A DNA stretch of 64,000 bases, taken from assembly GCA_963829055.1 (NCBI GenBank), contig CAWHHI010000016.1, positions 1,182,192 to 1,246,191 on the forward strand, read 5' to 3'. This stretch comes from an uncultured Gemmatimonadaceae bacterium (lineage in GTDB: Bacteria > Gemmatimonadota > Gemmatimonadetes > Gemmatimonadales > Gemmatimonadaceae). Below, piece by piece: positions 23,028 through 61,985 of this stretch. Position 1 is the stretch's first letter, and each line of letters starts with the position of its first letter. The translations under genes and the position numbers were made by a program. The notes below the pieces were generated by a model. That model searched no databases, had not been told where the DNA came from, and saw nothing but the letters and a program-made list of their open reading frames with translations.

Positions 23028-23121
23028 GGCCGGTAACGTAGCACCTTCGCTCGACCATAGCGATCACTACGACGCGTGTTGCGTCGCGGGTCGCCATCAA
23101 CCACCGGCAAGGAACGAAGCG

Positions 23122-26072: not shown

Positions 26073-26106
26073 CGTCCGCCCGCACAAGCAAAGCGGGTTT
26101 CCTTTC

Positions 26107-26135
26107 TTGACACCGCGATCCGCCGCAGATACTCT
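26107..26135 (+). promoter_or_regulatory. Sigma70-type promoter upstream of tssB
   Basis: TTGACA-N17-TACTCT about 130 bp before the tssB ATG. Confidence 0.55.
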
Positions 26136-26267
26136 CGCACGCGTCGAATCGAACGCCCACGCCCGACCCCGTGCGCAGTCCCAGGCACCGGGCTTCCCAT
26201 CGCCATCCGCGCCGCAACGCGGTGGCCACGACAGCCCTCACGGCACTGCCGAGAGCGAGGAGCCAGC

Positions 26268-31391: not shown

Positions 31392-31889
31392 ATGGCGAAC
31401 TCCGAGATCGAGCGCCCGGTCCGACCGTCGGTGCTCGATCGGCTCATCGACGATGATCACCGCAGCAATGTGGAGCCGGCGCTCACGCGATCGCAGTCGG
31501 TGCGCCAGTTCAAGACCGCGCTCCGACGTGATCTCGAGTGGCTGCTGAACGCGCGTCGCACGATTACCCCGGTGCCCGAGGATTCCGAGCAGCTCGCAAG
31601 ATCCGTGTTCACGTTCGGCCTGCCGGACATCACGTCCATGAGCAAGGACTCGCGCGAGTCGTTCGAGAAGCTGGCGCGGATGATCCAGTCGGCGATCGAC
31701 GTATTCGAGCCACGCCTCACGGACGTGACCGTGCAGCTCCGCGAGGGGAATTCGAAGCTGTTGCGCGACGTGCACTTCGTGATCGATGGCATCCTCAAGC
31801 TCGATCCCATGCCCGAACGCGTGATGTTCGACACGCGCCAGGACGAACGCGGCGCCATGAAGGTGCAGGAGGGTGCCGGTGGCGAATGA
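31392..31889 (+). CDS. tssE: T6SS baseplate TssE
   Basis: PSVLDRL, RDLEWLLNAR, FGLPD, FEPRL. Confidence 0.93.
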   Translation: MANSEIERPVRPSVLDRLIDDDHRSNVEPALTRSQSVRQFKTALRRDLEWLLNARRTITPVPEDSEQLARSVFTFGLPDITSMSKDSRESFEKLARMIQSAIDVFEPRLTDVTVQLREGNSKLLRDVHFVIDGILKLDPMPERVMFDTRQDERGAMKVQEGAGGE

Positions 31890-33718
31890 CCAGCTGCTCC
31901 AGTACTACGAGCGTGAGCTGACGTTCCTGCGCCGCATGGGCGCCCGCTTCGCGCAGGAATATCCGAAGATCGCGTCGCGCCTCGATCTCGAGCCGAGCAA
32001 GTGTGAGGATCCGCACGTCGAGCGGATGCTCGAGGCGTTCGCGTTTCTCGCCGCCCGCGTGCACAAGCGGATCGACGAGGATGTGCCCGAGGTCAGCGAG
32101 GCGCTGCTCGAGATCGTGTACCCGCACTACGTGCGGCCTATCCCGGCGATGTCGCTCGTCGAGTTCGAGCTGGATCGCGAGCAGGGCAAGCTCACGTCGG
32201 GGTTGCCCGTGCCTCGCAATTCGCTGCTCTACTCGCGACCCGTGGCCGGCGTGCCGTGCAAGTTCACCACGTGCTACGACACCACGCTCTGGCCCGTCCG
32301 CGTGGCGTCGCTCGAGTGGATGACACCCGATCGGCTCAAGCCGGCTGTGCGTGTCACCGATGCGGTGGCCGCGCTGCGGCTCGAGCTGCACTGCTTCGCC
32401 GATCTCGAGTTCAAGGCGCTCGACCTCTCCGCGCTCCGGCTGCACCTCGCGGGCGACAGCGGCGTGACGTTCGCGCTGTACGAGCTCCTGTGCAACAATT
32501 GCACGTCGATCATCGTGCGCGAGCCGGGAGGCAAGAAGAGCCTAACGCTGCCGGCGTCTTCGCTGCAGCCCGTCGGGTTTGCCGAGGGCGACGGCCTGCT
32601 GCCCTACCCGCGCCGCTCGTTTCTTGGCTACCGGTTGCTGCAGGAGTACTTCACGTTCCCGGAGAAGTTTCTCTTCTTCGATCTGGCGATCTTCGACGCG
32701 GTGCGGTCTGCCGGCTTCGGCGAGAAGGCGGAAATCATCTTTCTCATTCCGCCAGTTCGAGCGCGGCGAGCGACGTGCGCTGCTCGAGACCGGGCTGTCG
32801 CCGCGCTCCATGCGCGTCGGCTGCACGCCGGTGGTGAATCTGTTCCCGCAGGTCTCGGAACCGATTCTGTTGACGCAGCGGAAGACGGAATACGAGTGTC
32901 GTGCCCGATGCCAGGCGACGGCGCACCACACAGGTCTTCTCGGTCGACGAGGTCGTCGGCATCACGCCCGGATCGTCCGAGCCGCTGCGCATCGAGCCGC
33001 TGTACTCGTACCGCCACGCGCGGAACGGGCAAGGCGCCGAGCTGTTCTGGACGGCGCGACGCCGACCGGCCGAGTGGCGGCTGGACAGCGGAACGGACGT
33101 CCATCTCTCGTTCGTCGACCTGTCGGCTCGCACGGTGCATCCCGACCGCGACGCGATCACGGCACGCCTAACGTGTTTCAACGGCGACCTGCCGGGCCGG
33201 CTGCCGTTCGGCGATGAGACGGGCGACTTCGAGCTCGAGAACGGCGGGCCGGTACGACGGATCGTGGCGCTCAGCAAGCCGACCGATGTCGTGCATCCGC
33301 CACTCGGGCAGGCGCAGCTCTGGCGGCTCCTGTCGCAGCTGTCGCTCAACTATCTGCCGCTCGCCGACGGCGGTGCCGACGCGCTTCGCGAGATCCTCCG
33401 GTTACACAACTTCTCCGGCACGACGGCGGGTGAGCGTCACATTCGAAGGCATCGTGTCGGTGGCTGGCGAGCCGACCTACGCGCGCGTCGTGACGGAGCA
33501 CGGTGTCGCGTTCGCGCGCGGCCGCCGCGTGGACATGATGTTCGATGAGGAGCAGTACGCGGGCGGCGGGCGTGTATCTGTTTGCGAGCGTGCTGGAACG
33601 ATTCTTCGGCATGTACGCGTCCGTGAACAGCTTCACGACGCTCGTGGCGCGATCGAACAAACGGAAGGAGATGGTTCGCGCGTGGCCACCGAGAGCGGGA
33701 TGGAAGAGCCTCGTGTAA
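31879..33718 (+). CDS. tssF: T6SS baseplate TssF (several frameshifts)
   Basis: YYERELTFLR, DPHVERMLEAFAF, GYRLLQEYFTFPEKF, LWRLLSQLSLNYL, ends WPPRAGWKSLV. Confidence 0.93.
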
Positions 33719-34716
33719 GGCTCGGCGCCATCGAGGAAGCGCTCGAGCGAGAACCCTACTCGTTCGACTTCTTCCAGGCGGTGCAGCTGCTCCAGCAGCT
33801 GCACCCGGAGCGCGGGCGCGTGGGTCGGTACGGAAATCCCGACGACGAGGCCCTCCGCTTCGGCGCGACGCCCGCCACCGCATTTCCCGCCAGCGAGATC
33901 CAGGCACTCGAGATGGAGGAGGGCGCCCCTCCTCGCCTCGTCGTCAACTTCTTTGGCCTGACCGGGCCGCAGGGCGTGTTGCCGCTCGAGTACTCCGAGC
34001 TCGTCGCCGACCGCGTCCGCCAGCGCGACCACGCGCTACGCGACTTCCTCGATCTGTTCAACCATCGCATTATCAGTCTGTTTTTCCGGGCGTGGGAACG
34101 TACGCACGCGCACGGCGCCCCCGGCGCGAACGGCGCCGACGCGCTGCATGATCACCTGCTCGATCTGGCCGGACTGGGGACGCCCGGTCTCGCGGAGCGA
34201 CTCGGGTTGCCATCGGCAGCCCTTCCGTTCTACGTTGGTCTCCTCGGAATGCCAGCGCGACCGGCAGTGGCGCTCCAGCTGCTCCTCGAGGACTACTTCG
34301 GCGTTCCGGTAGACGTACAGCAGTTCGTAGGTGGATGGTACGCGATCGATGAAGCATCGCAGTGCGCCCTCGGCGATGAGTCATCGCCGTCGTCGCAACT
34401 CGGCTTCGGCGCCGTGGCCGGTGACGAGATCTGGGACGTGCAGGCCCGCGCGCGGCTTCGTATCGGGCCGCTCACTCGGGCGCAGTATGACACGTTCTTG
34501 CCGACAGGCAGCGCGTTCAAGGAGCTCCGCGCGCTGACGAAATTCTTCACCGGCGAGCAGGTCGACGTCGAGGTCCAGCTCATTCTGGCGCGCGACGAAG
34601 TACCGCCAGTGGCACTCGGTGGCGACACGCAGGCTGCGACACCGCTTGGATGGTCTACTTGGCTTCGTTCGCGCCCCTTCACGCGCGACGCGAGCGACAC
34701 GATTCTCACCCTGTAG
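33682..34716 (+). CDS. tssG: T6SS baseplate TssG
   Basis: FDFFQAV, AFPASEI, GLTGPQGVLP, FLDLFNHR, LGWSTWL. Confidence 0.94.
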   Translation: MATESGMEEPRVRLGAIEEALEREPYSFDFFQAVQLLQQLHPERGRVGRYGNPDDEALRFGATPATAFPASEIQALEMEEGAPPRLVVNFFGLTGPQGVLPLEYSELVADRVRQRDHALRDFLDLFNHRIISLFFRAWERTHAHGAPGANGADALHDHLLDLAGLGTPGLAERLGLPSAALPFYVGLLGMPARPAVALQLLLEDYFGVPVDVQQFVGGWYAIDEASQCALGDESSPSSQLGFGAVAGDEIWDVQARARLRIGPLTRAQYDTFLPTGSAFKELRALTKFFTGEQVDVEVQLILARDEVPPVALGGDTQAATPLGWSTWLRSRPFTRDASDTILTL

Positions 34717-34743: not shown

Positions 34744-37455
34744 ATGAGCGTCAATCTTCGCGCGCTGATCGCCCGACTGAACGACGAGTCGCGCCGCGCG
34801 CTCGAGTCAGCAGCGGGGCTCTGCCTGTCCCGCACGCATTACGACGTCGAGATCGAGCACTACCTGATGAAGGCGCTCGATGACACCGACGGCGACATCG
34901 CGGCGATCCTCAAGCACTACGGGGTGGATCGGTCGCGACTCGCGTCCGAGCTGACGCGCAGCCTCGACAAGCTGAAGACGGGCAACGCACGCAACCCGTG
35001 CGTTCAGCCCGACGCTCGTGAAGGCGCTCACCGAGGCGTGGACGATCGGATCGCTCGAGCTTCGGGCGAATCACGTGCGCACCGGTCACGTGATGCTCGC
35101 GCTGCGTTCGGTCGACGAGCTCGCGCAACTGACGCGCGACGTCAGCAAGGAGCTCGAGAAGATCTCTCCCGAGGCGCTGCAAGAAGGACTTCGTCGGCGA
35201 TCGTAGCCGGCACGTCGGAGGACGCCGCTGCCGCTTCGGCGACCGGAGTCCGCGAGTGAACCGCGGAACGCCACGGGTCGGCGGCAAGACGCCGAATCTG
35301 GATCAGTTCACCGTCGATCTCACCGCGCGCGCGAAGTCTGGAAAGATCGATCCGGTGCTCGGACGCGATTTCGAGATGCGTCAGGTCGTCGACATCCTGA
35401 CGCGGCGCCGCCAGAACAATCCGATTCTCGTCGGCGAGGCCGGCGTCGGAAAGACGGCGGTCGTCGAGGGCTTCGCGCGGCGCATTGTCGAAGGGCGACG
35501 TCCCCACGCCGCTCAAGAACGTCACGCTGCGCACGCTCGATCTCGCGCTGCTGCAGGCAGGCGCGGGCGTGAAGGGCGAGTTCGAGAATCGCCTCAAGGG
35601 TCTGATCGAGGAGGTGAAGAACTCGCCGACGCCGATCATCCTGTTCATCGACGAAGCGCACACGATGATCGGCGCCGGCGGCACGGCCGGTCAGGGCGAC
35701 GCCGCGAATCTGCTCAAGCCGGCGCTCGCGCGCGGCGAGCTGCGCACGATCGCCGCGACGACGTGGGCGGAGTACAAGAAGTACTTCGAGAAGGATCCGG
35801 CGCTGTCGCGCCGCTTCCAGCTCGTGAAGGTCGAGGAGCCGACGCGAGGACGTGTGCCTGCGTCATGCTGCGCGGCGTGGTGCCGGCGCTCGAGAAGCAT
35901 CACAACGTGCGGATTCTCGACGACGGGTCTCGACGCGGCGGTTCGGCTGTCGCACCGCTATCTGCCCGATCGCCAGCTGCCGGACAAGGCGGTCAGCGTG
36001 CTGGACACGGCGTGCGCGCGCCTCGCGTTAGGCCAGACGGCCACGCCGGCGTCGGTCGAAGACGCGCAGCGCGACGCTCGACGATCTCGCCGTGCAGGAC
36101 GCGCGTGCTCGAGCGCGAGGAGTCGCGTCGGCGTCCGATCACGCCGAGCGCCTCGCGAACATCGCCGAGCAGCGCACGGAGACGGAAGCGCGAGCTGGCG
36201 CGCGCTGACAGACGCGCTGGGAGCAGGAGCGCGGTACTCGTGACGAAGATTCGCGAGATCCGACGGGCAGACGAGCTGCGCACGCAGCGCATGCCGCGAC
36301 AGCAAGCCGCGGCGACGCGGACGGTCTGCGCGCAGGAGCTCGACGCGCTCGAACACGGAGCTCGCGACGCTGCAGGGCGAGACGCCGCTCATGCGCGTCG
36401 CGTGTGGACGCGTCGATCGTCGGCGAGGTGATCTCCGGGCTGGACCGGCATTCCCGTCGGCAAGATGCTGCGCGACGAGCTCGGTGACGGTGCTCGAGCT
36501 CGAGAGCACGTTAGGCGCGCGCGTCATCGGCCAGGATCACGCGCTCGAAGTGATCAGCCGGCGCATCCGCACGTCGCGCGCCGGCATCGAGGATCCGAAC
36601 AAGCCGAAGGGCGTGTTCATGCTCGTGGGACCGAGCGGCGTCGGCAAGACGGAGACGGCGCTGGCGCTGTCCGATCTGCTGTACGGCGGCGAGCACAACA
36701 TGATCACCATCAACATGTCGCGAGTTCCAGGAGGCGCACACCGTCTCGCACGCTGAAGGGGTCGCCGCCGGGATACGTGGGCTACGGCGAAGGCGGCGTG
36801 CTCACGGAAGCCGTGCGGCGGCGTCCGTACTCGGTGGTGCTGCTCGACGAGGTGGAGAAGGCGCACCCCGACGTGCTGGAGCTGTTCTTCCAGGTGTTCG
36901 ACAAGGGCGTGATGGAAGACGGCGAGGGACGGCAGATCGACTTCAAGAACACGATCATCATTCTGACGACGAATGCCGGCACCGAGACGATCATGAAGCT
37001 CACGGCGGACCCCGAGACGACGCCCAGCGCACGAGGGACTGGTCAAGGCGCTCAAGCCGGAGCTCGACAAGATGTTCAAGCCGGCGTTCCTCGGCCGCAT
37101 GGTCGATCATTCCGTACTTCCCGGTGCGCGACGAGAACCTGAAGCAGATCATCAGGCTCAAGCTCGAGCAAGATCGAGCGGCGCATGCAGGAGACGCATC
37201 GCATCGCCTCGGATGGACTACGACGAGGCGGTCGTGGACAGCGTGGCCGCGCGATGCACGGAAGTCGAGAGCGGCGCGCGCAACGTCGACAACATTCTCA
37301 CGAACACGCTGCTGCCCGAGGTGTCGAAGTTGTTGCTCGAGCAGATGGTGGCGGGGCACAAGCCAACGCGACTCGATATTCGCATTGGCGATGATGGCCT
37401 GTTGACCTATCAGACGGATGCCGTCGGCGAGCCCGCCGCCGTCGTCACGGGCTGA
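34744..37455 (+). CDS. clpV: ClpV/TssH AAA+ ATPase (many frameshifts)
   Basis: [63 protein letters not shown]. Confidence 0.93.
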
Positions 37456-37513
37456 ATCGCGTCCGTCGTTCGGTCATAGTCGTTCGGCGATACCGGAACC
37501 TTCGAGGCCTCCG

Positions 37514-39618
37514 ATGGCGTACACGCAGGACAAGCGGCCGCTACGGGTCAAGACGCCGCTCGGCAAGGACGTCCTGTTGCTGGAACGCTTCAGCGGCGAG
37601 GAGGGCGTCTCCACGCCCTTCCATTTCGTGCTCGAGATGCTGTCGGAGAACGGCGCGATCGCACCGGATGACCTGCTGAGAAAGCCGCTCACCGTCGAGA
37701 TCGAGATTCCTGGCGGCGGGAAGCGCTTCGTACACGGGATCGCGAATCGCCTCTCGCAGCTCGGTCGTCGCGCGGGGCTGACCGCCTACCGCATCGAGGT
37801 GGTGCCGTGGCTGTGGTTCCTGTCGCTCACGAACGACTGCCGGATCTTTCAGAACCTGAGCGTCGAAGACATCGTCACGAAGGTCTTCAAGGACCTCGGC
37901 CACAGCGACTTCAAGTTCAAGCTCATGGGCGCGTCGCCCAAGCGCATCTATTGCGTGCAGTATCGCGAGAGCGCGCTCGCCTTCGTGTCGCGGTTGCTGG
38001 AGGAGGAAGGCATCTTCTACTTCTTCGAGCACACGGACTCGTCGCACATGCTCGTGCTCACGGATCATCCGAGCCAGGTGCCCGCGTGCCCTGACGCGAG
38101 CAAGATCCGGATGACGGCGACGCAGAGCTGGCAGATGGCGGAGGAGCCGCTCGTGACATCGCTCGAGGTCGATCACTCGGCGGTCACGGAAAAGATCGAG
38201 CTGACCGACTACGACTTCGAGAAGCCGACCGCATCATTGCGTGCGTCGGTGTCGGGAAAGCAGAAGGACGAGGTGTACGATTATCCCGGCGGCTACATCG
38301 TCAAGGCCGATGGCGATCGGTACGCGCGCGTGCGACTGGAGCAGAAGGAGGCCGAGCGCGAGCTGGCGCGCGGTGAGAGCAACGTGCCCGCGTTCACGTG
38401 CGGTCACAAGTTCGAGCTCACCGAGCACGCGATCCGCGGCCTGAACAAGAGCTATCACCTGTTGCGCGTGCGGCACTCGGCGGCGATCTCCAATTACACG
38501 ACGGACAGTGGGGAGTACGACTACGCGAACTCGTTCGAGGCCATCCCGAGCACGGTACCGTATCGTCCGCCGCTCGCTACGCCGCGAGCGGTGATATCAG
38601 GCACGCAGACGGCAGTCGTGGTGGGTCCGGGCGGCGAGGAGATCTACGTCGACAAGTTCGCCCGTGTGAAGGTGCAGTTTCACTGGGATCGCCAGGGGAA
38701 GAAGGACGAGAACAGCTCGTGCTGGGTGCGCGTGTCGAGCGCCTGGGCGGGAAAGAACTGGGGATTCATCCAGATCCCGCGCATCGGGCAGGAAGTGATC
38801 GTCGACTTCCTCGAGGGAGATCCGGACCAGCCGATCATCACCGGCCGCGTCTACAACGCGGATCAGATGCCGCCGTATGCGCTGCCGGCGAACATGACGC
38901 AGAGCGGGACCCTAACGCGGTCGACGAAGGGCGGGTCGCCGGCGAACGCGAATCGAGATCCGCTTCGAGGACAAGAAGGGCAGCGAGCAGCTGTTCATCC
39001 ATGCGGAGAAGAACCAGGACATCGAGGTCGAGAACGACGAGACGCACTGGGTGGGGCACGATCGGACGAAGACGGTCGATCACGACGAGACGACGCACAT
39101 CAAGCACGACCGCACTGAGACCGTCGACAACGACGAGACGATCACCATCGGCGGCAACCGCATCGGAGACGCGTCGCGAAGGACGAAACGATCACGATCA
39201 GCGGGAATCGCACCGAGAGCGTCGGCGAAGAACGAATCGATTTCGATCAGCGGTAGTCGCACGAGAGCGTCGCGGAGACGAGTCGATTACGATCAGCGAA
39301 CGAAGCGAGTCGGTTTCGAGATGAGATCGCGTCACGGAAAGCGCGAGGTGTCGGTCAGCAAGGACGAGGCTCTCGCCGTCGAGGGCGCGCGCAAGGTCCA
39401 GATCGGGAAGGACGACTCGCTTGCAAGTCGGAAAAAAGCTCATCATCAACGTCGCGGATGAAATCTCGATCAAGACCGGTGACGCCGTGATCGTGATGAA
39501 GAAGAACGGCGACATCACGATCAAGGGGAAGAACATCACGCTCCAGGGCTCCGGGAAAATCACCGGCAAGGCCGACGGTGACGTCGTGCTGAAGGGCAGC
39601 AAGGTCACGGCAAACTAG
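37514..39618 (+). CDS. vgrG: VgrG spike protein, no effector extension (frameshifts after about 38950)
   Basis: RIFQN, YCVQYRES..FVSRLLEEEGIFYFF, SCWVRV, IPRIGQEVIVDFLEGDPD, gp5-type C-terminal repeats. Confidence 0.95.
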
Positions 39619-44405: not shown

Positions 44406-45490
44406 GCCCGCTCGGCGCTCTCGCCGTCACCGCGTTAGGCGCTGCCACCGCTGTTGGCCGCGGCGCCGTCGCCTCCGCGGCCGCGATCCGCGCCGGTATC
44501 GTCCGGCCACGCGGGCTCATCGAGCCCGAGGTCCTCGACGAAGAGACGCACGAACCTGTCGCCGTGATTGGACATCCGGTTCGCGGCGTAACCGATGGTT
44601 TCGCCATGCTTGGCCGGTGGTTGCGACTGGCGAACGCCGCCGTCGGCGATCTGCTCCGGTCCACGCCGGGCGCAAGTCTAACGCGGGATGCATGGCGGCG
44701 AACGGCACGCATCCTCGCCACACCAGTCGCGAACCCCGACGTCTTCCTCGCCGAACCCGAGCAAGTCTTTGCCGCTATCCACAGCGAGGTTGGACTGGCA
44801 CTGCTCGAGGAGTTGGAGCTGGCAATCCCCGCAGCGAAGACCGAGATCGCACCGTACGGCCACGTGGCGTTCGCGGCCGCTGTAGAGCGAGCCAAGCTCA
44901 GGATAGGCGTGGATTGCGATCGCGTGCTCCTAGTTGCCGTCGACTCGCTCATCGACCCGCTGGTGCTCGAGTGCCTCATCAATGAGGACCGACTCAAGCA
45001 CGGGGGTAACCCGGTGGGTCTTGCGCCGGGTGAGGCGGCAGTCGCTGTCCTCCTCGAGCCCGCACTGTCCACCTCAAGCCGCGCTCCGCTCGCCCTCGTC
45101 CTTGGCTCGGCGATCGATCGATCCGAGCGCAACGTTCACGCGGAGGTCGATCGGGCGGTAGCCAACGTGTGCGACGCCGCGCTCGCGGACGCGGGGATGC
45201 AGGCAATCGTTGGCGAGATTTACCTTGATCTTACGGGCGAGGTCTGGCGCGCCCGTCAGTGGGGTAACGCCCTTCCGACGCTGCAGGGGAGACTCGAAGG
45301 CGAGTTCGTGTTCCCGGCCGCGTGCGTTGGTGACGTGGGAGCGGCAAGTGGCGCACTCGCCGCGTGCCTCGCAACGCGCGCATTCGAACGCGGGTACGGG
45401 ACGAGTGGGCGAGCCGTGGTCGTGTCGATGGCGGACAACGGGAGTTTATCATGCGTCGTCCTCGCCCGACCCGGCATGGTCGGATCATGA
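44402..45490 (+). CDS. Ketoacyl-synthase/thiolase-like T6SS adaptor-associated protein
   Basis: AAIRAGI, VAVDSL, PGEAAVAVLL, DLTGE, PAACVGDVGAASG; family usually linked to DUF2169/DUF4150. Confidence 0.7.
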   Translation: MSPLGALAVTALGAATAVGRGAVASAAAIRAGIVRPRGLIEPEVLDEETHEPVAVIGHPVRGVTDGFAMLGRWLRLANAAVGDLLRSTPGASLTRDAWRRTARILATPVANPDVFLAEPEQVFAAIHSEVGLALLEELELAIPAAKTEIAPYGHVAFAAAVERAKLRIGVDCDRVLLVAVDSLIDPLVLECLINEDRLKHGGNPVGLAPGEAAVAVLLEPALSTSSRAPLALVLGSAIDRSERNVHAEVDRAVANVCDAALADAGMQAIVGEIYLDLTGEVWRARQWGNALPTLQGRLEGEFVFPAACVGDVGAASGALAACLATRAFERGYGTSGRAVVVSMADNGSLSCVVLARPGMVGS

Positions 45491-46036
45491 AGGGCGCGCT
45501 CTTTCTCCCAGTGTACGAGAAGGGCTTCCTAAACGACAACCAGGAGCTCCTCCCTGCCCTGCTGGAACGCCGCCACGGCGCACGACTGGCGCTCGCCGTG
45601 TGCACGAACTGGCGGCGAGCGGCAATCGCGGTACTCCTACAGAGTGGCCGAGCGGATCAGTTCCACCGTCGTCTGCAACGAAGCGGCAGCGCGTTCCTCC
45701 ACTTCATTCGCGGCACGCCACCAAGCTCGACGCGGCTCACCGACTCGGCACCATTCCTGGATGCCATCGCCGCGGGTGATTTCGCGACCGCCGACGATAT
45801 CGCGCGGCATTCCAATCACCGATGGATCGAGGACGAGGAATATGAGGAGGATTTCCTCTTCTACGAATTCTTGATGACCCACGCTCTCCCGGGCGCGCCC
45901 GCGGATCCGGCGAACGCGATCCTCGATCGGTGGGACGCATGCCTAGCCGGCACGGACGATCAGCGGCTTCCGGTTTGCCACGCGATGGTGGGCAAGGACG
46001 CTGCCGCGTTCGACGCGGCGTTGATCGACTACCCCT
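45487..46036 (+). CDS. Imm49-like immunity protein, apparently 3'-truncated
   Basis: PFLDAIAAGD..IARHS..W..DEEYEEDFLFYEFLM..DAAAFDAAL, then protein-like sequence is lost. Confidence 0.55.
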
Positions 46037-46241
46037 ATGACTCGCGTGGCGCATGGGCGCGACGTCACGTCGGCCATCGCTCCAGACGCCTTCGGCTGGC
46101 TCGACATGCAGGCGCGCTACGAATGGTGGATGCGCGCCCGCTTCCGTGGCACGTGGGCCGGGTCGCCCATGCAGCTCGAGGTGTTTCCGCAGCGCTGACG
46201 AGCGATGGCGCTCGGTCGCTCGCACGACGTTAGGCGGCGCG

Positions 46242-47018
46242 CTACCGGAGCCGCAGCAGGAACAGGATCAGCGCCACGGCGACCGCAACCGCTGCCGCGA
46301 TCTCGGCCGGCCGTATGGGCCGCCTTGGGGCCCGCCTCGCCGCGGGTGTGTCGTTAGGCGCCGCCGGCCCTGACCGGCGCGTCGGAGTCGGCGCGGTCGC
46401 ACCACCGACCGCTCGCTGGATGATCGTGACCGCCGGGCGCGCCGCCCCGGCTCCGCGCGCGGGCGTGGCGCCCTCCAGCTCGACCGCCTTCAACGTCCGC
46501 GTGACGCCAACCTCGAACTTCTTGTTCAGGTCCTTCTGCAGCCGGAGCGCCACGATCTTGCCGTCCGCGAGATCGCGCGCGAAGTAGACGAGTCCACCGC
46601 CCTCCGACCGCGGGAATGTCGCCGAGAAACTCGTACTGGCCCTCTGTCGCGGCGCGCACCTTATCCCGCAGCGCCGCGCGCGACGCGTGTTCGCCGGATG
46701 ACGGCGCCTCGCCCGACACATCGAGCCCGCATTGCGTGCAGAAGCGCGCCCACTGGCGGAGCTTACCGCGACAGCGCGGGCACCTGAGCTCTATGTCCGG
46801 CACAGAGGCATCGAGCTCGCGGCCGACGTCGAGGAAATACTGCGATCCGCCGGCGCCGTCATCGCCCGGCTCGAGCTTGAGCACCACGAGCGCCTGCCCC
46901 GCAATCTCACGGGCGAGATAGACCACCCCCCGTTCGGACTGGCCCCAATCTCCCCGAGCACGTCGAACGTGCCCGCGGCAGCTTCGCGAACAGCGACGTA
47001 GAGGCCTGGGTTCGACAT
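46242..47018 (-). CDS. Membrane protein with two kinase N-lobe-like units around a zinc ribbon (two frameshifts)
   Basis: Reconstructed across three frames: TFDVLGEIG..VVYLAREI..VVLKL, CPRC..CTQC, QYEFLGDI..GGGLVYFARDLADGKIVALRL, C-terminal TM. Confidence 0.65.
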
Positions 47019-47233
47019 GACTAGAGGTTGAGGGGGCGGCGCAACTGCCGTCGTCGGCTCGACATGGCGGGCGACCGTGATCGAGACCAAGCTGGAGCGT
47101 CCTTCTGTTGCGACTCTGACGCGGATCAACAATAAATGTGACTGCGGGCCGGGTCGAGCTGTAACGGAGAATCGAGGACGAGGCCCCGACTTGCTTCGAC
47201 GTCGCGCGGGTCGCACTTTGCCGCACCCCCAGG

Positions 47234-50200
47234 ATGACGCCAACCTCCACTTCCACGTGTCCGACCTGCGGCGGGGCCGTACTTCCAGGCGACCGGTTCT
47301 GCGGTAGCTGCGGTAGTCCCGTCGCGGTTAGCGCGTCCGCGCCAGCTTCGTCCAACCAGGTCCCGCCAGCACTCGACACGGTCGACCTGCCCGTCGGGGA
47401 CACGTCGCCTGGGGCGCCGTGGCAGCTCGGCTCCAGTCGGCAACGCTCGGGGAATTCGAGATCCTGACGGAGCTCGGCCGCGGAGGGATGGCTGCGGTCT
47501 ACCTCGCACGCGACCTGGCGCTCAATCGGCGCGTCGCGATCAAGGTCATGGCACCCGGTCTGATGCTCGGCCAAGGTATGGTCGAGCGGTTCCGGCAGGA
47601 AGCAATCACCGTCGCGAACCTGCAGCACGCGCACATCGTCTCGATTTACGCGGTTCGCGCGCTCGACGATCTGCACTTCTTCGTCATGCAGTTCGTCCCC
47701 GGCCGCACGCTCGAAGGCGTGCTTCGGGAAGGCAGCCCGCTGCCGATCCCCGTCATCCGCGCCTGGCTCTATCAGATCGGCGCCGCCCTTGGGTACGCAC
47801 ATCGCCGCGGCGTGATCCATCGAGACGTCAAGCCGGGCAACATCCTGCTCAACGCCGACGGCGAGGCGATCGTCACCGACTTCGGCATCGCGAAGGTGGC
47901 CGAGACACCCAGTCACACGCAGACGGGTACGGTCGTCGGCACTCCGGTGTACATGAGTCCCGAGCAGTGCTTCGCCAAGGAGCTCACCGGCGCGAGCGAC
48001 CAGTATTCGCTCGGGATCGTGGCGTACGAGATGCTCGCTGGACGCCCGCCGTTCTCCGGATCGAGCTTCGCCCTCATGCGCGCGCATACGGATGACCCCC
48101 CGCCGTCCCTGCGCGCCGTACGCCCAGACGTCCCGCCGTCGATGGAGGCGGCCGTCGAACGCATGCTGGCGAAGAAGCCGCAGGATCGGTTCGCGACACT
48201 CGCCGAAGCGCTCGTCTCGTTAGGCGCCGGTCCGGTCTCACCGGATGACCCGTTGCACCTGACGCTGCAGCAGCTCGCCGCAGCGAGTGAGCGGCTCGAA
48301 CAGCTCGGCGGGCTGATTCGAACGCCAGCCAGCCCAATCCCGAAGACGCGCGAGCGTCCGAAGCCCCCGGCCCCGATTACGCCGCAGACCCCGGTCCCGT
48401 CGACGCCGTCGCTCGTCGTCGCGATGGAACCGCCGCCGTCGGACCTCGAGCCGGGCGCCACGACAACCCTGCGCGCCGCGGTGAAGGACGCCACCAGCGG
48501 GGAGCCGGTCCCCAGCGCCGAAGTCCACTGGACGAGCAGCGCCGTTTCCGTTGTCGAGGTCGATGCCGGAACCGGACTCCTCCGAGCAGTCGCGCCAGGG
48601 AGCGCCGTCATCACCGCGACAAGCGGCGTTGCGCGAGACGCCGTAGACGTTGTCGTCGCGGAGCCGAAGCCGGCACACATCGAAATCTCGATCCCGCCGG
48701 GTGCGTGGCACGTCGGCGATGACGTTGTCGTAACGGCGGTCGTGACGAGCCGCTTCGGTATTCGTGTCGCCCGTCCGATCGAATGGTCCGTCGAAGACGC
48801 GTCCGTTGTCGTCATCGGGGGGAGCGCTTCGAGCGCGGTGGGTGCATCCGTGACTCTTCACGGGCGAGCGGGTGGGACAACGGGCATCGTCGCAACGTGT
48901 GGTGGTGCTGTTGCCCGCGTGAACGTGCGCGTCGTTCCAGCAATCGTCACGGAGACGCCGATCGCCCCGACCGCAGGTGAAGACCAGGCGCGATCGAGGC
49001 CGCCCGCTCCGAGCGCCACTGTCGTACTGCCGCCGATGCCCGTAGCGATTCCGGCGTCGACGCCGATCGCACCCGAACCGCCGTCACGGCTGTCATTGCC
49101 ACCCGAGGCGCGCCGTGAGAAGCTGGTACACACGCCGGTGGACACGCGGGCAAATAAGGCGGCGGTATCAGCGGGCGACGTCGCAGGCAACGCGGAGCCA
49201 TCCCGCGCGGGAACATGGCGCTGGGTCGCGGCGGCAGTCGCGGTCGTTGGAGCGATCGGCTACCTCGCGTCGCGGCCGTCCACATCCACGCCGTTGAAGG
49301 CCGATTCGGCGGTGGCGCAAGCACCCGATTCGCTGACGGCTCCATCCATCGACACGACAGCGCGCGTCGCGACCAGCCCACCCGCGTCGGGGGCGAGCAC
49401 TTCGGCCACGAGCCCCGAGTCCACAACTACGCCCGCAGCGACGGAATCGTCGTCAGTCCGCACACCGGTGGCGCCCACGCCGCGTCGCATCGACGTTCGA
49501 CCGTCGATCCCCAAGCCCATCACGCCTGGGCAAACACTGACGCTGGCGGCGAGCGTTCGCGACTCGGCAGGTGAGCCAATGTCGCGCGCGCGCGTTACGT
49601 GGTCCAGCAGCGATTCACGCATGGCGGTCGTCGATCCCACGCGCGGGATCGTACGAGGGGTGAGCGCCGGGACAGCGCGCATTACGGCGCACGTCGGCGA
49701 CGTCGTGTCGACAATCACCGTCGCAGTCAGTGCTCCCGCAGTGGACGCCACGGCCGTTGCTGGCGTCGATGTCTCCGATGTGCGCCCGATGACGGTCGGC
49801 GAAACGACGCGATTGACGGCCATCGTACGCAACGCGCTGGGCGCCACGGTGAGCGGTACCGACATCCAGTGGAGCTCGTCGAATGCCGATATCGCGGCCG
49901 TTGCGCCTAACGGCTTGGTGACGGCGCGCGCACCGGGCGTCGCGACAATCCGTGCGTCCGCCGGAGGTCGCACTGGCGATCGTGCTGTGACCGTCCGTGC
50001 AAAAGAGGTGGTGGTCCGTCCAGACACGCCATCAACGCCTCCACCAAACGCGGGTGCGCCCGCCCCCGCGAAGAGCGAGGCGGAGCTGCGCGCCGAGGTC
50101 CAGACCGTACTCATGACGTTCGTGCGAGCGATCGAAGCGAAGGATACGACACTCATCCGTCGTGTATTCCCGACGGCCAGCAGCGTGGTGATGACGCGAT

Positions 50201-50427
50201 GGCAAACCACGTTCAACGACGCTCGTGGTCCTATCCGCCTCGCCGGCGACGCGGCGCAGATCACCGACACCCCGCGCGACGCGGCTGGCGCGCAGGTGCA
50301 CGCGCGCGCGAACTACTCAGCCCGTTTTTCTTCGCGATCGGGACGTGCAGACGTGACCTTTCCCGTTCCCATCATCGCGGTCCTCCAGCGTGACGGCGGG
50401 ACGTGGCGCATCGTGAGCATGCAGTAG
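47234..50427 (+). CDS. Membrane Ser/Thr kinase: Zn ribbon, kinase, Ig-like (Big_2) x2, TM, Big_2 x2, NTF2-like C-terminus (frameshift near 47425)
   Basis: CPTC..CGSC, LGRGGMA, HRDVKPGN, DFG, WTSS/WSSS Big_2 motifs, WVAAAVAVVGAIGYL TM, LQRDGGTWRIVS. Confidence 0.9.
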
Positions 50428-50547: not shown

Positions 50548-52416
50548 ATGCGCCTAACGACCAGCACGATCGGCCTCGCCCTGCTCGCGACCGTGGTGGC
50601 GTCGTGCGGCGGAGACGGCGGAAGCGGGCCCGTTGCCACAACGATTCGTGTGTTGCCGGACGCGCCGTCGGTCCAGGTTGGCGAAGCCGTGACTCTCACG
50701 GCAACGCCTGTGGACGCCAAGGGCAATGTCGTTGGCGTGGACGGGACACTCGCGTGGACGACGAGTGCCGCCGCAGTCGCGACCGTCGACAACAACGGCG
50801 TTGTCACGGGCGTCGGCGCCGGATCAGCAAACATCACCGCCACGATCGGGCGGGTGACGGGCAGCACGACCGTCACGGTCCTTCGCGTCCCGGTTGCACG
50901 CGTCGAGGTCTCTCCCACCCCCGTGTCGTTCAATCGGTCCCAAACGCGTCAACTCACGGCCAGCGTGTTCGCGGCCGACAACTCCGCATTGGGAGGTCGA
51001 ACGATCAGCTGGACCACCAGCGACGCCGCGGTCGTCACGCTCACGGGTACGACTGGCGCCACCACCACGCTAACCGCTGTCGCTCCCGGAACAGCGACCG
51101 TGACCGCCACGAGTGAAGGGATCAAGCGCGACGTGCCAGTGACCGTGCAGCCCGATCCCGTCATCGCGTTCACGCCCACCGCGGCCTCGTTCGGCTCGAC
51201 GGCTGGTGGTCCAAACCCGGCAGTGCAAACGATCACGGTGTCCAACGCTGGTGCCGGCACGTTGAACGGCCTCACCGCCGGGACAATAACGTATGGAGCC
51301 GGTCAACCTGCCGGCTGGCTCACGGCCGCCTTCAGCGGGAGCACGGCGGATCCGGCTCCGCTCACGCTTCGCGCAACCACCGGGTCGCTCACGGTCGGTG
51401 CGTACACCGCGTCAGTCCCAGTGGCATCCAGCGTCCCCGGAGTCGCCGCGAAGAATCTCGCGGTGACGTTCAACATCGGTTCAGCGATCATGCTGGGCGC
51501 GACACCTGTCAGCGTGTCCTTCAACGCACCTGCAGTAACGGGCAATCCCGCAGCTCAGACGGTGAACATATTCAGCGTGAACGGTAGCCCGATCACCGGC
51601 CTTGCTGTGTCCGCCATTGAGTATGGCGCTAGCCAGCCTACCGGTTGGTTGGCGGCCTCACTGTCCGGCACTGGGACGGCGGCCACGCTGACACTGCAGG
51701 CGACCGTAGGATCGTTGCCGAGCGGGACCTACACCGCGAACGTACCTGTCACGGCGGCCGCGGCCACGAACAGCCCGCTCAAGGTGCCCGTGACGTTCGT
51801 CGTTCCGGCACCACTCATTGCGCTGTCGGCAACGTCCGGCAGCTTCGTCGCGCCGCAGGGCGTTGGCACGGCACCGTCTCAGGCGATCACGGTTTCCAAC
51901 GGTGGTCGCGGTTCTCTGAGTGGGCTGCAGGTTAGCGTCACGTACGGCGCCGGCGCGACAAACTGGCTCAGCGCATCGCTCAGTACGGGGACGGCACCCG
52001 CCACCCTCACGTTGACACCGACGGCCAACACGATTGCCCGCGGCACGTACTCCGCGAGCGTGCAGGTGTCCGCGGCAGGTGTCGGGAACAGCCCGCAGAA
52101 CGTCACGGTGTCGTACGCGCTGGTCTTCACCTTCGACCAGCACATTGCCGGCACGCTCGCGAGTACCACGGCGGGCACCGGGTGCTCGAACAGCTCGTGT
52201 CATTGTATCGGCGGCCAGACGCCGGTGCTCGCCGCGGGGTCCGGCGACGTGTATGCGCGCTTGTTAGGCGGCTACGTCACGCCGGGAAATCTCGCGGCGA
52301 GCTTGCTGTATCAACGCGTCAACGGCTCACCGAGCGCGATGCCGCCCTCCGGTGTAATCCCGACCGTTCGCGACGCGATCGCCGCGTGGATACTCGACGG
52401 CGCGAGGCGGAACTGA
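50548..52416 (+). CDS. Lipoprotein with Big_2 and BACON-like Ig repeats and a C-terminal cytochrome c-like domain
   Basis: Lipobox VVASC, WTTS Big_2 motifs, repeated GWL..S/G.YTA units, CSNSSCH, PGNLAASLLYQRV..MPP..IAAWILDGA. Confidence 0.75.
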   Translation: MRLTTSTIGLALLATVVASCGGDGGSGPVATTIRVLPDAPSVQVGEAVTLTATPVDAKGNVVGVDGTLAWTTSAAAVATVDNNGVVTGVGAGSANITATIGRVTGSTTVTVLRVPVARVEVSPTPVSFNRSQTRQLTASVFAADNSALGGRTISWTTSDAAVVTLTGTTGATTTLTAVAPGTATVTATSEGIKRDVPVTVQPDPVIAFTPTAASFGSTAGGPNPAVQTITVSNAGAGTLNGLTAGTITYGAGQPAGWLTAAFSGSTADPAPLTLRATTGSLTVGAYTASVPVASSVPGVAAKNLAVTFNIGSAIMLGATPVSVSFNAPAVTGNPAAQTVNIFSVNGSPITGLAVSAIEYGASQPTGWLAASLSGTGTAATLTLQATVGSLPSGTYTANVPVTAAAATNSPLKVPVTFVVPAPLIALSATSGSFVAPQGVGTAPSQAITVSNGGRGSLSGLQVSVTYGAGATNWLSASLSTGTAPATLTLTPTANTIARGTYSASVQVSAAGVGNSPQNVTVSYALVFTFDQHIAGTLASTTAGTGCSNSSCHCIGGQTPVLAAGSGDVYARLLGGYVTPGNLAASLLYQRVNGSPSAMPPSGVIPTVRDAIAAWILDGARRN

Positions 52417-52510: not shown

Positions 52511-53806
52511 TTAGAACCCGTACTCCAGCCCTCCCGTCCAGAGCGTGCTCGTTCGGAGGCCGCCGCGGTTGAGCGGAAGGAGCGCGTTCACGATGAACGT
52601 GAGCCCGCCCTTCGTTGCGAACTTGCCTCCAAGCGACACATTGAACAGATCGTCGCGCCGATCCGGAATGTTGCTGGGGACGATGGTACGCTGGAACGGA
52701 ATCTCGATTGTGACCGGCTCCGGAAGGGCGAGCTTCGTGTCGCCCATCTGCCATTCCGAGATGACATCCAGCGCGAACGTGGCCCAGGGTGCCAGCAAGC
52801 GATCGAACCCCGCCGTCGCCAGAAGCGCGTTCATCTGATCGTCGCCGCCGCGAATCGCCACACCGGCGTTCGCGTGCGGCGTGAATTCGCCGTAATGACC
52901 CGACACGATGGCGAGCAATCGCGTGGACGTGCCGCCCGATCCCAGGAAATTGTCCTCGTCACCCGTGGGCAGACGAACGTCGCCGAGAATCGCGAATCCC
53001 GTTCGCGCGTTCGCATTGCTCGGCGACAGGTTGATCTTCGCTCGCAGCGCGACGTCGCCGATGCCTGACGCGGACCCACTGACGCCAGCCACCGCCGACA
53101 GGATGGGACTCGCGGCAGTTCCACCGAAGTAATGCGACGGGTTCGGACCGAAAGGAACGATCTGACCATTACTGGTGCCATCGATGGACGTCGACACGTA
53201 CGGCACCGCAACGCTGACGTCGAACCGGTTGGTAACGCCGTACGTCGCAAACGCGACGGTCGCCAGCACGTCGACGTTGAGCGAGGTGCGCACGGTGATG
53301 AACTCGTTCTCGAACGCCGGGTTGCCTTCGCCCGGTGGATCGGTGTCCTGGTGCGTGAAGTTGAAGTTCAGCGCGCTCAGCGGAATCCCGCGGAGTGAGT
53401 TGAACCGGATCGAGCTCACATTCGCACCGACGAGCATTCGTCGTCGACCCAGCGTCTGCGCCCGCTCAGCGAAGATCGGACCACCCGAAAGATTCGTTCG
53501 GACCGGCGCACCGCCCTCGAACGTGTAGGTCACCCCGCTCGTGGTAGCGCTGATCGGGATGTTGCTGACGTTCGATCCCACCGCGCCACCGAGAAACGCG
53601 ATGATCGCCGCGTTGCCTGACTCGGCGGATGGAATGAAATGCTGCCCATGCGCATTGCCGGCGAGAACGAGCGCCGGCAGGCACAGCGGTTCGCCGCAAT
53701 TGCCGAAGGAGAACAAACCCTCCTCGAACTGCTGCCTCAGCCCCTGCGCCGGTGCGGTTTGCGACAGCATAACGAGCAATCCGAGCCCGATCGTGATTCG
53801 GCGCAT
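52511..53806 (-). CDS. Putative outer-membrane beta-barrel (transporter-like)
   Basis: Signal peptide, GIGDVALRAK, LPTGDEDNFLGSG, alternating strands, C-terminal GGLEYGF. Confidence 0.7.
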   Translation of the reverse strand: MRRITIGLGLLVMLSQTAPAQGLRQQFEEGLFSFGNCGEPLCLPALVLAGNAHGQHFIPSAESGNAAIIAFLGGAVGSNVSNIPISATTSGVTYTFEGGAPVRTNLSGGPIFAERAQTLGRRRMLVGANVSSIRFNSLRGIPLSALNFNFTHQDTDPPGEGNPAFENEFITVRTSLNVDVLATVAFATYGVTNRFDVSVAVPYVSTSIDGTSNGQIVPFGPNPSHYFGGTAASPILSAVAGVSGSASGIGDVALRAKINLSPSNANARTGFAILGDVRLPTGDEDNFLGSGGTSTRLLAIVSGHYGEFTPHANAGVAIRGGDDQMNALLATAGFDRLLAPWATFALDVISEWQMGDTKLALPEPVTIEIPFQRTIVPSNIPDRRDDLFNVSLGGKFATKGGLTFIVNALLPLNRGGLRTSTLWTGGLEYGF

Positions 53807-57482: not shown

Positions 57483-58976
57483 ATGCGTCCATTCACAGCC
57501 ATCGCATCGACCGCCATTCTACCGGCCTTCCTGGCCGCCGGCGCCTCGGCACAGACCCCACGTGGGATCCCCAGTCGAGCCGCGGTCACGCACGTCGCGG
57601 ATTCGATCGCCGAGTCCGTAACACGAAACGGAGGGGTCGCTGGGCTGGCTATCGCGGTGCTTCGCGGCAACGACACGCTGGTAATGAAGGGATACGGCTC
57701 GGCCGATCTCGAGAACGATCTGCCTGCGACCGCGCAGACCGTCTACCGCATTGGCTCGGTGACGAAGCAGTTCACGTCCGTCGCCATCATGCAGCTCGTT
57801 CAGCAGGGCAAGCTGTCGCTCGACGACGACGTCACGAAGTACGTGCCGAACGCGCCGACGCACGGGCGACGCATCCTCGTCAGGCATCTGTTGAATCACA
57901 CGTCCGGCATCCCCAGCTACACGGACGTCGGGCCGGAATTCGGCCGGGTCGCTCGGCTCGATCTCTCGCACGATTCGCTGCTCGCGGTTGTCCGTGACGA
58001 CTCGCTGCAGTTCGAGCCAGGATCGCACTTCTACTACAACAACACCGGCTATTACCTGCTCGGCATGGTCATCGAGAAGGTGACGGGCAAGCCGTATGGG
58101 GACTATGTCCGCGACGCGCTGTTCGTGCCAAACGGTCTGACGTCCACGGTGTACTGCTCCGTTGGACCGACTCATCAAGCGGCGAGCACGCGGCTACGAT
58201 CGCGGACGCAATGGACTCGTCAACGCGGACTATATCGGCATGGACCTGCCGTTCGCGGCAGGTTCGCTCTGCTCGACCGTCGGCGACCTCGCGGCGTGGA
58301 CGCGTCTCCTCCACAGCGGGAAGCTCGTGAACGCGTCCTCGTTCGCGACCATGACCACACCCGTCAAGCTGACGAGCGGACGACCCATGTCCTACGGCTT
58401 CGGACTCTCGGTCGACACGCTGGGCACGCACCGCCGAATCCATCACGGCGGCGGCATCAACGGCTTCATCTCGGAGCTGGCGTACTACCCTAACGATTCG
58501 CTCACGGTCGTCGTGCTCGCGAACACGTCGCCGGCGCCGTCGGACCAGATCGCCGAAAACATCGCGCGCGTTCGCGTTCGGCATGCCGTTCCGCGACGGC
58601 GCCGCCGCGCCCGGCCGATCTCCCGATCGCCGCCGACGAGGCGAAGCGGCTCGCCGGGAACTATCGAGATCACGTTGCCCGATGGCTCGAGGCGAGCCGG
58701 CGACCGTCACCGCCAACGGCGAGCAGCTCATGCTGCAGATCGAAGGCCAGCCGGCAGTGCGCCTGATGAAGCAGTCCGCGCCTAACACGTTCGCGCGCGA
58801 TGGGCCAGCCGGGCCGTATCATGTTCGACGTCGCGAACGGAAGCGTGGTCGGCTTCGTGATCGACCGCGGCGCGCGACCGCTCGAGGCGGTGCGCGTACC
58901 GTACGCATCCGAGCGGTCGTCATTCCGAGCGGAGCGCTGCGGCGCGCGGGTGCCTCGGACGCACGACGAATCGTGA
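57483..58976 (+). CDS. Serine hydrolase, beta-lactamase class C/PBP family (frameshifts; end approximate)
   Basis: Signal peptide, IGSVTKQF, LLNHTSG, YNN, HGGGING. Confidence 0.88.
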
Positions 58977-60546: not shown

Positions 60547-61913
60547 CTACACGGTCGGGCCGATTCGTTCGCTGATGTAGCCGCGAAGCTGGTCGGCGGC
60601 GACGCGCACCTGCTGGAGCGTGTCGCGGTCGCGAACCGTGACCGTGCCGTCCTGCGTGGACTGGCCGTCGATCGTGATGCCGAACGGCGTGCCGACCTCG
60701 TCCTGACGGCGGTACCGGCGGCCGATCGCGCCGCCGTCGTCGTAGAAGACGGCGAACGACTTGCCGCAGATCATCCGCGACGCGACGTCGCCATCTCCGG
60801 CATGCCGTCCTTCTTCACGAGCGGGAAGACGCCGGCCTTGATCGGCGCGAGCGCGGGCGCGAGGCCGAGCACCGTCCGGCCCTCGCTCTCGCCCGGCACT
60901 TCCTCCTCGCGGTACGCGTTCACGAGCACCGCCAGCGTCGTGCGATCGGCGCCGACCGACGTCTCGATCACGAACGGAACGAAGCGCCGGTTGTTCGGCT
61001 GGTCGAAGTACTCGAGCTTCTTGCCCGAGTACTCCTGATGCGCGTCCGAGGTCGAAGTCGCGCGCGGTTGTGAACGCCTTCGATCTCCTGGAAGCCTAAC
61101 GAGCCGCCGAAGTCGAACTGGATGTCGAAGGCCGCGCGCGCGTAGTGCGCGAGCTTGCTTCGTGCTGCTTGTAGCGCAGCCGCTCCGGCGCGAGGCCGAG
61201 CGCGCGATGCCACTCCATGCGCTGCGCCTTCCAGTACTCGAAGTACTCCTCGTCCGTGCCCGGCTCGACGAAGAACTGCATCTCCATCTGCTCGAACTCG
61301 CGCGTGCGGAAGATGAAGTTCCCGGGCGTGATCTCGTTGCGGAACGCCTTGCCGATCTGCGCGATGCCGAACGGGATCTTCTGCCGCGTCGACTGCTGGA
61401 CGTTCAGGAAGTTCACGTAGATGCCCTGCGCCGTTTCCGGACGCAGGTACACGATGGACGCGCTCTCCTCCACCGGCCCCATGAACGTCTTGAACATGAG
61501 GTTGAACATGCCGCGGCTCGCTCAGCGTGCCCTTCGCATCCGCACACGGGACACTGCGCGTCGGGCGCGCCGGGCGTGCCCTTGATGGCCGGATCGTCCG
61601 CGCGAAAGCGGCGCTTGCAGTTCCGGCAGTCGACGAGCGGATCGGTGAACCCGGCGACGTGGCCGCTCGCCTCCCACACGCGCGGATGCATGAGGATCGC
61701 CGCGTCGAGCCCCTCGATGTCGTCGCGCGCGCGCACCATCGCGTGCCACCAGCGGTCCTTGACGTTCTTCTTCAGCTCGACGCCGAGCGGACCGTAGTCC
61801 CACACGGACCCGGTGCCTCCGTAGATCTCGGAGGACTGGAAGATGAATCCGCGTCGCTTCGCGAGCGACACGAGCTTCTCCATGACATCGGGATGTGCAG
61901 ACACGCTAGCCAT
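60547..61913 (-). CDS. glyQS: Glycyl-tRNA synthetase, homodimeric type (frameshifted)
   Basis: [66 protein letters not shown]. Confidence 0.96.
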
Positions 61914-61985
61914 GACCGGGCCGAAGGGCGCGAGGTTGGTTGGGCGGAGCGGGCGAACCCGAAATGTAACCGTCCCATTCCGCGC

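Follow-up and report, generated by a model that had tools for sequence, protein, structure and literature searches.

To our knowledge, all bacterial pseudokinases described so far keep the whole kinase fold. Bacterial Hanks kinases, PknB for example, are activated by dimerisation of their N-lobes. The Hanks-type pseudokinases, such as the MviN-linked ActPs3 and YukC/EssB, are non-catalytic descendants of Ser/Thr kinases that are often membrane-anchored and act by protein contacts; PMC12599244 describes back-to-back N-lobe dimers for MviN, and YukC appears in PMC9600267 as a membrane pseudokinase inside the type VIIb secretion machine. A bacterial kinase atlas (bioRxiv) recognises seven pseudokinase families, all of them PF00069 homologues. 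Here, we analyse a gene at positions 46242-47018 of a 64,000-nucleotide stretch of DNA (the window) from an uncultured Gemmatimonadaceae bacterium, encoding a small protein with comparable traits, being non-catalytic, descended from Ser/Thr kinases, membrane-anchored and predicted to act by protein contacts. Unlike the pseudokinases with their whole bilobal fold, its module keeps only a helix plus β1-β3 of ~65 residues, closed by a fourth strand, and this head occurs twice in tandem, with a zinc ribbon linking the two copies.

In the threonine phosphorylation pathway of type VI secretion systems (T6SS; PpkA, PppA, Fha, TagR/TagQ and TagF), the kinase has a vWA ectodomain, and we know of no kinase-derived protein among the accessory proteins of the pathway. 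As in our window, a receptor-type Hanks kinase is encoded there with the T6SS, and PMC13713981, PMC3953482 and PMC5995506 report that small accessory membrane proteins control its activation. The window differs in that its kinase carries Big_2 ectodomains and that no FHA protein is encoded. The KIND domain, according to PMC2064798 and PMC5338823, is likewise a kinase-fold fragment that has lost catalysis, serves protein interaction and sometimes occurs in two copies; KIND, however, is eukaryotic and corresponds to the C-lobe, whereas our module is bacterial, corresponds to the N-terminal sheet of the N-lobe and comes with a zinc ribbon and a membrane anchor. A domain derived from the kinase N-lobe only was not found described in the literature searched, although the supplements of the bioRxiv atlas could list such fragments; in the available text of the atlas preprint and of PMC12599244 the terms 'truncated', 'Gemmatimonad' and 'zinc' do not occur, and the passages mentioning the 'N-lobe' concern full-length kinases only. 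The family is unannotated; kinase-derived non-catalytic regulators as such are already known in the form of pseudokinases and of the C-lobe-only KIND.

The gene lies on the minus strand between an ATG at 47018 and a TAG at 46244-46242, exactly where the initial annotation had placed it, and its coding sequence is split over three frame pieces in the window assembly. Its product starts with head 1, from which a zinc ribbon (CxxC...CxxC) leads to head 2; a disordered linker and, at the C-terminus, a transmembrane (TM) helix follow, with AVREAAAGTFDVLGEIG..VYLARE..VVLKL as the motif string of head 1 and KVRAATEGQYEFLGDI..VYFARD..IVALRL as that of head 2. Every motif that the initial annotation had quoted for this anatomy of tandem heads, CPRC/CTQC zinc ribbon and TM anchor was recovered. 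The two heads are 40% identical over 50 aa (E 9e-11). An AlphaFold2 model of the orthologue P0020 (277 aa, 76 aligned relatives; mean predicted local distance difference test score (pLDDT) 81.5, predicted template modelling score 0.69), in which most of the first 170 residues have a pLDDT >90, shows each head of ~65 aa as a helix followed by a four-stranded antiparallel sheet (head 1, H3-14, E18-26, E32-38, E44-52 and E59-66; head 2, H114-124, E129-137, E143-149, E155-162 and E168-175). In each head, strand 4 occupies the place of αC, and the model contains no αC, no C-lobe and no helical domain after β3. The counterpart of the linker mostly has a pLDDT of ~49-64, apart from a short strand of higher confidence (residues 195-199), while the terminal helix spans residues 256-276 of 277 at a pLDDT of ~90.

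Across the 77 aligned family members, the four Cys of the zinc ribbon are invariant (77/77), so that both CxxC knuckles are present, and the YLAR and EGGGxVYFAR motifs are nearly so. Conservation in head 2 extends to G140 (72/75), F146 (73/75) and R159 (65/75). Pfam DZR (PF12773) matches the window copy weakly, at E 3.5e-4 with 21.1 bits against a gathering cut-off of 27.3, and PF12773, PF13240 and PF13248 match 10 to 14 per 75 members at E<=1e-4. The position of the VAIK lysine is mostly Arg, which is found there in 39 of the 77 members for head 1 and in 65 of 75 for head 2; Lys stands there in 18 and 2 members, respectively (the window copy has Lys in head 1), and 6 members have Gln in head 1. 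At its C-terminus, the protein of the window and of P0156, its intact counterpart, has a 16-aa hydrophobic stretch, then LRLR and the stop; as a lone hydrophobic helix at the extreme C-terminus with nothing after it, this marks a tail-anchored single-pass protein. A crude scan places a hydrophobic stretch within the last 35 aa of at least 25 of 70 short members, a lower bound, given that the window's own helix escapes the scan. Judged from sequence, the protein is non-catalytic, tail-anchored and cytoplasmic.

The resemblance of the heads to the kinases encoded nearby had been noted in the initial annotation, and it holds in several comparisons. The second half of the module, comprising zinc ribbon, linker, helix and β1-β3, lines up collinearly with the N-terminal part of the receptor kinases encoded locally (47234, 54061 and 984-2123 in the window), at 29-40% identity. 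BLASTP of zinc ribbon plus head 2 against kinase N-termini gave E 5e-4 for local kinases and 1e-5 for the gene's own divergent kinase, and head 1 matched the kinase helix plus β1-β3 at 39-40% identity (E 4e-6; 1e-3 against its own divergent kinase). A family profile aligned to the 54061 kinase with an hhalign probability of 95.7% (E 1.1e-8) and also recovers N-lobes of genuine kinases from the genome to which the window belongs; conversely, tblastn with kinase residues 5-43 matches heads in other loci at 42-55% identity. In structure comparison with VIA-align, kinase N-lobes make up 31 of 50 rows, aligned to head 1 residues ~4-67, and a profile search of the PDB returned weak matches to kinase N-termini only (E 0.08-1.6) besides one zinc-ribbon match (E 0.023). 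By this collinearity and profile likeness, the heads are homologous to the zinc-ribbon/helix/β1-β3 head of local Hanks kinases. Relative to those kinases, the Gly-rich loop has become EGGG in head 2, the VAIK lysine is predominantly replaced by Arg as described above, and all kinase sequence after β3 has given way to one strand. HRD and DFG, already reported missing by the initial annotation, are absent from both P0156 and P0020, and the protein is neither a kinase nor a pseudokinase in the usual full-fold sense.

The profile, built from four intact modules, retrieved 671, 287 and 132 cluster representatives at E<=1e-3, 1e-10 and 1e-30, respectively. No Pfam or NCBIfam model covers the heads in the window pieces, the intact homologues or the listed members (for NCBIfam, in P0156), and the ESM Atlas yielded only leads, all with scores <0.9, to unnamed clusters and to clusters of kinase fragments with zinc ribbons. 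Architectures were tallied for 150 listed members, in all of which (150/150) the module is N-terminal, starting within the first ~70 residues. Three settings emerge: the module alone with a TM anchor, the module before a TM-PEGA-Sel1 arrangement whose PEGA/Sel1 domains are periplasmic, and the module fused to a complete kinase. Seventy of the 150 are short (<=340 aa), and a further 50 measure 341-720 aa without HRD/DFG; Sel1 repeats occur in 30 and PEGA in 21. A full Pfam kinase domain lies C-terminal to the module in 29 (L006 and L007, for example), the same number in which a crude string scan finds both HRD and DFG. Source records name members 'hypothetical', 'TPR/Sel1 repeat' or 'Ser/Thr kinase'. 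The sole taxon named for members is Gemmatimonadaceae, and five named genome contigs come from Gemmatimonadaceae or Gemmatimonadales metagenome-assembled genomes; in a sample of the phylum, 20 of 151 genomes match at E<=1e-12. Within its own genome, the gene at 46242-47018 is the only strong family locus in the profile search.

Gene neighbourhoods connect the module with kinases, as the initial annotation had supposed when it described the gene as divergent from a real kinase. The gene starting at 47234 on the plus strand is indeed a Hanks receptor kinase, whose reading frame is broken in the window by a single-base gap at 47410, and scans of the intergenic region 47019-47233 yielded neither sigma-70-like nor terminator-like sites, nor any palindrome of note. 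The analysis covered 36 loci, whose flanking sequence extended to at most 5 kb, including 23 short-form loci with >=500 bp upstream. A Hanks kinase is encoded immediately upstream on the opposite strand in 16 of these 23; in L051 the kinase is 2.2 kb away, and in L061 it is upstream on the same strand. Near-duplicate loci lower the independent count (L037/L043, L040/L041, L045/L046, L047/L048 and L057/L058). The partner is of the zinc ribbon-kinase-TM-Big_2 type in every locus examined for type; in L035-L037 and L043 it is orthologous to the 47234 kinase, and in L034, L038, L040 and L041 to the 54061 kinase. In G001, G004 and L029, the gene immediately upstream of the long form encodes a Pkinase-Big_2 protein. 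This synteny and the in-cis fusions back the functional link to Hanks kinases.

The two window kinases look like the product of a local duplication or rearrangement, since the partner of the module in L040/L041 is the orthologue of the 54061 kinase. Two further genes travel with the kinase-module pair, a Big_2 protein (window 50548-52416) and a 431-aa protein without a Pfam family (52511-53806), and these companions recur in contigs L040, L041, L036 and L029; the homologue that L029 encodes for the 431-aa protein gives a weak Phenol_MetA_deg match. Kinase-Big_2 proteins at L029:1903-4932, L032:3956-7078 and L033:76-3315 end in a conserved, Cys-containing domain of ~170 aa that shows CYLGR...YW motifs and is matched by no Pfam model.

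The T6SS cluster of the window, at ~13964-43000, lies ~3-30 kb from the tandem-head gene, and the Hanks kinases at 47234 and 54061 are encoded together with its core genes. The link to injection systems, also proposed in the initial annotation, recurs in other contigs. TssM-DotU-TssK directly follows the module gene in L045-L048 and L054; in L045-L048 it abuts the kinase-module pair, and in L054 histidine kinases take the place of the Hanks kinase. Among long-form loci, the kinase-Big_2 gene follows FHA-Tail_P2_I in G001, G004 and L029, accompanied by Baseplate_J in G001 and G004 and by an eCIS_core gene (extracellular contractile injection system, eCIS) in L029. Gene neighbourhood only is what points to a role of the tandem-head protein in T6SS control.

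One part of the initial annotation found little support: the 19775 protein had been paired with the tandem-head protein as a second N-lobe-only protein around the T6SS, but the family profile gives no match to it, and its likeness to an N-lobe is weak (hhalign probability 4.5%). This protein, P0155 (19775-21553, plus strand, 592 aa), adjoins TssK; its ~95 N-terminal residues are weakly collinear with a kinase N-lobe (E 0.009) and are followed by a long Pro-rich region with repeated F-T-x-x-F-G-like motifs and by a C-terminal TM helix. Searches with Pfam, NCBIfam and the tandem-head profile returned nothing for it.

At the first of the two frame breaks, a coding-strand run of G is one short relative to the near-identical metagenome contigs L037 and L043, and at the second there is one extra base; the initial annotation had located both to within a few bases, at 46930 and 46610, and had regarded them as indels to be polished and not as decay. 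L037 and L043 come from two separate records and align to the window at 98.4% over 5986 columns and 99.6% over 2819 columns (L037), and at 98.4% and, over 495 columns, 99.8% (L043). Both carry the tandem-head gene as one intact 258-aa open reading frame (ORF), and the kinase is intact in L037 as one 1064-aa ORF (L037:1591-4785). Six small indel events separate the window from L037 over ~8.8 kb aligned, or ~0.7 indels per kb: a G missing from a run of seven at 46926-46931, one surplus base at 46611-46615, one base lost at 47410, and events at 50431, 44027 and 43493. In the four events covered by both contigs, these agree against the window. Codon-position GC switches phase at the borders of the three frame pieces; because it is noisy by eye across 44-51 kb, split Pfam domains were used to detect frameshifts instead. 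Unrelated window genes are cut between frames in the same way: ClpV falls into at least 3 pieces and DUF58 into pieces at 9799-10452 and 10265-10732, and TssF, VgrG, both copies of TssC, a gene with a beta-lactamase fold and a fragment of a class II aminoacyl-tRNA synthetase are split as well; the source genome comprises 20 contigs with a marker completeness of 85.9%. Because the near-identical contigs are intact and many other window genes are split, both frame breaks are most likely assembly errors, and a strain-specific double frameshift in this gene is very unlikely. Apparent pseudogenes in this assembly are mostly artefacts and should not be taken at face value.

The intact orthologues that the initial annotation had wanted checked do exist, as P0020 and, from L037/L043, P0156. 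P0020 is collinear with the three window pieces at 77%, 89% and 82% identity, and orthologues in ten metagenome loci, 76-83% identical to P0020, keep a single open frame throughout the extent of their contigs. Nei-Gojobori ratios of nonsynonymous to synonymous substitution rates (dN/dS), computed for L037 against six orthologues, are 0.08-0.14 for the core (residues 1-180) in the five closely related pairs (dS 0.8-1.1) and reach 0.36 for the most distant one (L044); the linker gives 0.38-0.94. The module is under strong purifying selection, with dN/dS ~0.1, and 46242-47018 is a real gene under selection. The alternative that the frameshifts are real and the locus is the pseudogene remnant of a duplicated kinase 5' end could appeal to the two breaks and to the adjoining kinase, which the copy resembles. 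It is contradicted, because orthologues are intact (L037, L043, P0020 and eight further close ones) and the core is under purifying selection; the breaks sit, moreover, among indels that also split housekeeping genes, and at least 132 family clusters share the conserved architecture. We regard this candidate as refuted, its probability being very small.

We consider it about an even call that the protein, tethered to the membrane, acts as a partner of the receptor kinase encoded divergently, docking on its cytoplasmic head and thereby modulating activation that depends on N-lobe dimerisation, whether as activator or as inhibitor. Kinase-fused forms would exert this modulation in cis, long forms would add a periplasmic sensor (PEGA/Sel1), and the kinase output may, to go by gene neighbourhood, bear on the nearby contractile injection systems. 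A broader proposal, possible but tentative, is that the tandem N-lobe-fragment and zinc-ribbon module represents a new domain class and forms, within a split receptor system, the output that binds the kinase; this system would couple receptor Ser/Thr kinases to T6SS/eCIS assembly in Gemmatimonadota, with the short tail-anchored form as a dedicated allosteric partner of the divergent kinase. Several observations weigh against these proposals. Five of the 23 short-form loci have no kinase in the available flank (L054, L056 with only 533 bp upstream, L057, L058 and L062), and the long-form loci L027, L028, L030 and L031 have a TPR_12 protein upstream and no kinase there. T6SS genes occur in only 5 of 36 loci, in ~3 distinct arrangements; no FHA domain is encoded in the window, the 5 FHA matches of the genome all being on contig C12; and only ~11 of the 151 phylum-sample genomes match across both heads. 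The kinase likeness of the fold is also limited: VIA-align Z-scores are middling (4.4-6.1), with a TraM/VirB8-like fragment as the top row and cystatin-like folds interleaved with kinases, Foldseek against the PDB found nothing at E<=1e-3 and only 45-column local matches to the CDK12 N-lobe (probability 0.87-0.93), and Pfam Pkinase (PF00069) is silent on the heads (window pieces at E<=0.01, the module of intact homologues at E<=1). In the model, the back-to-back dimer surface of kinases is retained only in part, because the fourth strand stands in for αC. A complex prediction pairing the window kinase domain, without its zinc ribbon and linker, with module residues 1-205 (scores 0.00 and 0.00 against a mark of 0.32, controls not run) speaks neither for nor against docking.

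The protein could instead be a substrate or docking platform, that is, a membrane-anchored phospho-acceptor of the neighbouring kinase whose phosphothreonines recruit FHA proteins or injection-system parts. Candidate sites would be the linker, which is rich in Thr-Pro and predicted to be disordered, or Thr173, conserved in 66 of 70 members; FHA genes recur near members (FHA-Tail_P2_I in G001, G004 and L029; FHA-SLT in L057), and a precedent exists in phospho-TssL recruiting Fha in Agrobacterium, as set out in PMC3953482. Yet it is the linker that evolves fast and the heads that are constrained, and a phospho-acceptor role leaves unexplained why the constrained part copies a kinase head and why in-cis kinase fusions occur; together with the lack of an FHA domain in the window, this makes the platform unlikely in our estimate. 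A module working independently of kinases, a new small α+β domain descended from the kinase head but with another partner or ligand, for example the TssM/TssL membrane complex of the T6SS, would give single-pass membrane proteins a domain for cytoplasmic output or for oligomerisation. Such a role is suggested by L054, where the module has TssM-DotU-TssK and histidine kinases as neighbours and no Hanks kinase in its vicinity, by the periplasmic PEGA/Sel1 sensor domains that long forms have of their own, by the resemblance of the fold to cystatin-like and VirB8/TraM-like domains, and by an EGGGxVYFAR loop conserved beyond the need of a purely structural loop. The pairing with kinases in 16 of 23 short-form loci and the fusion to kinases in 29 of 150 members speak against it, as does T6SS adjacency in so few loci, and we judge it rather improbable. 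Of these readings, we favour docking on the divergent kinase.

Table 1. Coordinates of the tandem-head gene, its parts and adjoining features in the window.
Feature	Position	Strand	Description
Whole gene	46242..47018	-	~258 aa with two single-base indels allowed for; intact counterpart L037:5001-5774 = P0156
Frame piece 1	47018 to G-run 46926-46931	-	frame 0; opens MSNPGLYVAVREAAAGTFDVLGEIGASPNGG
Frame piece 2	~46925 to ~46612	-	second frame; VVYLARE...VVLKL...CPRC...CTQC...KVRAATEGQYEFLGDIP
Frame piece 3	~46610 to stop	-	frame 0 again; RSEGGGLVYFARD...IVALRL, Thr/Pro/Ala-rich stretch, hydrophobic helix
Frame break 1	46926..46931	-	coding-strand run of 6 G in window, 7 in L037/L043
Frame break 2	46611..46615	-	one extra base and two substitutions relative to L037/L043
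Head 1	46822..47018	-	P0156 residues 1-66; helix and four antiparallel strands, kinase β1-β3-like
Zinc ribbon	46729..46782	-	CPRC...CTQC
Head 2	46494..46683	-	P0156 residues 113-175; helix and four strands; EGGGxVYFAR and VALRL motifs
Linker	46308..46493	-	low-complexity, rich in Thr/Pro/Ala/Arg
C-terminal hydrophobic helix (tail anchor)	46254..46301	-	read from sequence
Divergent intergenic region	47019..47233		215 bp between tandem-head gene and kinase gene
Divergent partner gene	47234..50427	+	zinc ribbon, Hanks kinase, TM, Big_2 receptor kinase (Pfam, alignment)
Split-gene regions in window	9799-10732, 24109-28268, 31861-34713, 35401-37452, 37406-39458, 58141-58782, 61099-61985		

Other features of the loci deserve mention. 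FHA is fused to the phage baseplate protein Tail_P2_I at L032:2874-3953, L033:2997-4079 and L029:670-1875, in genes that adjoin Baseplate_J (L032 and L033) and the kinase-Big_2 gene; this adjacency suggests phosphothreonine-dependent control of an eCIS-like baseplate. At L057:3001-4728, FHA is fused to a lytic transglycosylase (SLT) in a gene divergent from a short tandem-head gene. The window itself contains two full-length TssK (VasE) paralogues 2 kb apart (18262-19842 and 21675-23063) and two sheath gene sets, suggesting two T6SS units or a partial duplication. At the junction 46033/46034, ~796 bp of L037 (L037:5986-6781) have no counterpart in the window, so that either the window has lost this piece by deletion or mis-assembly or L037 has gained an insertion; the junction falls inside a plus-strand ORF (45364-46233) with a weak Imm49-like match.

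Non-catalytic relatives of kinases are major regulators in eukaryotes and have barely been explored in bacteria. Of the kinase domain, the family described here retains only the first ~50 residues, present twice around a zinc ribbon, and its occurrence in free, sensor-attached and kinase-fused forms is a 'Rosetta stone' pattern that points to a direct role in kinase regulation. It offers a testable handle on how receptor Hanks kinases are switched, and may bear on the control of T6SS and eCIS machines in an abundant, little-studied soil phylum.

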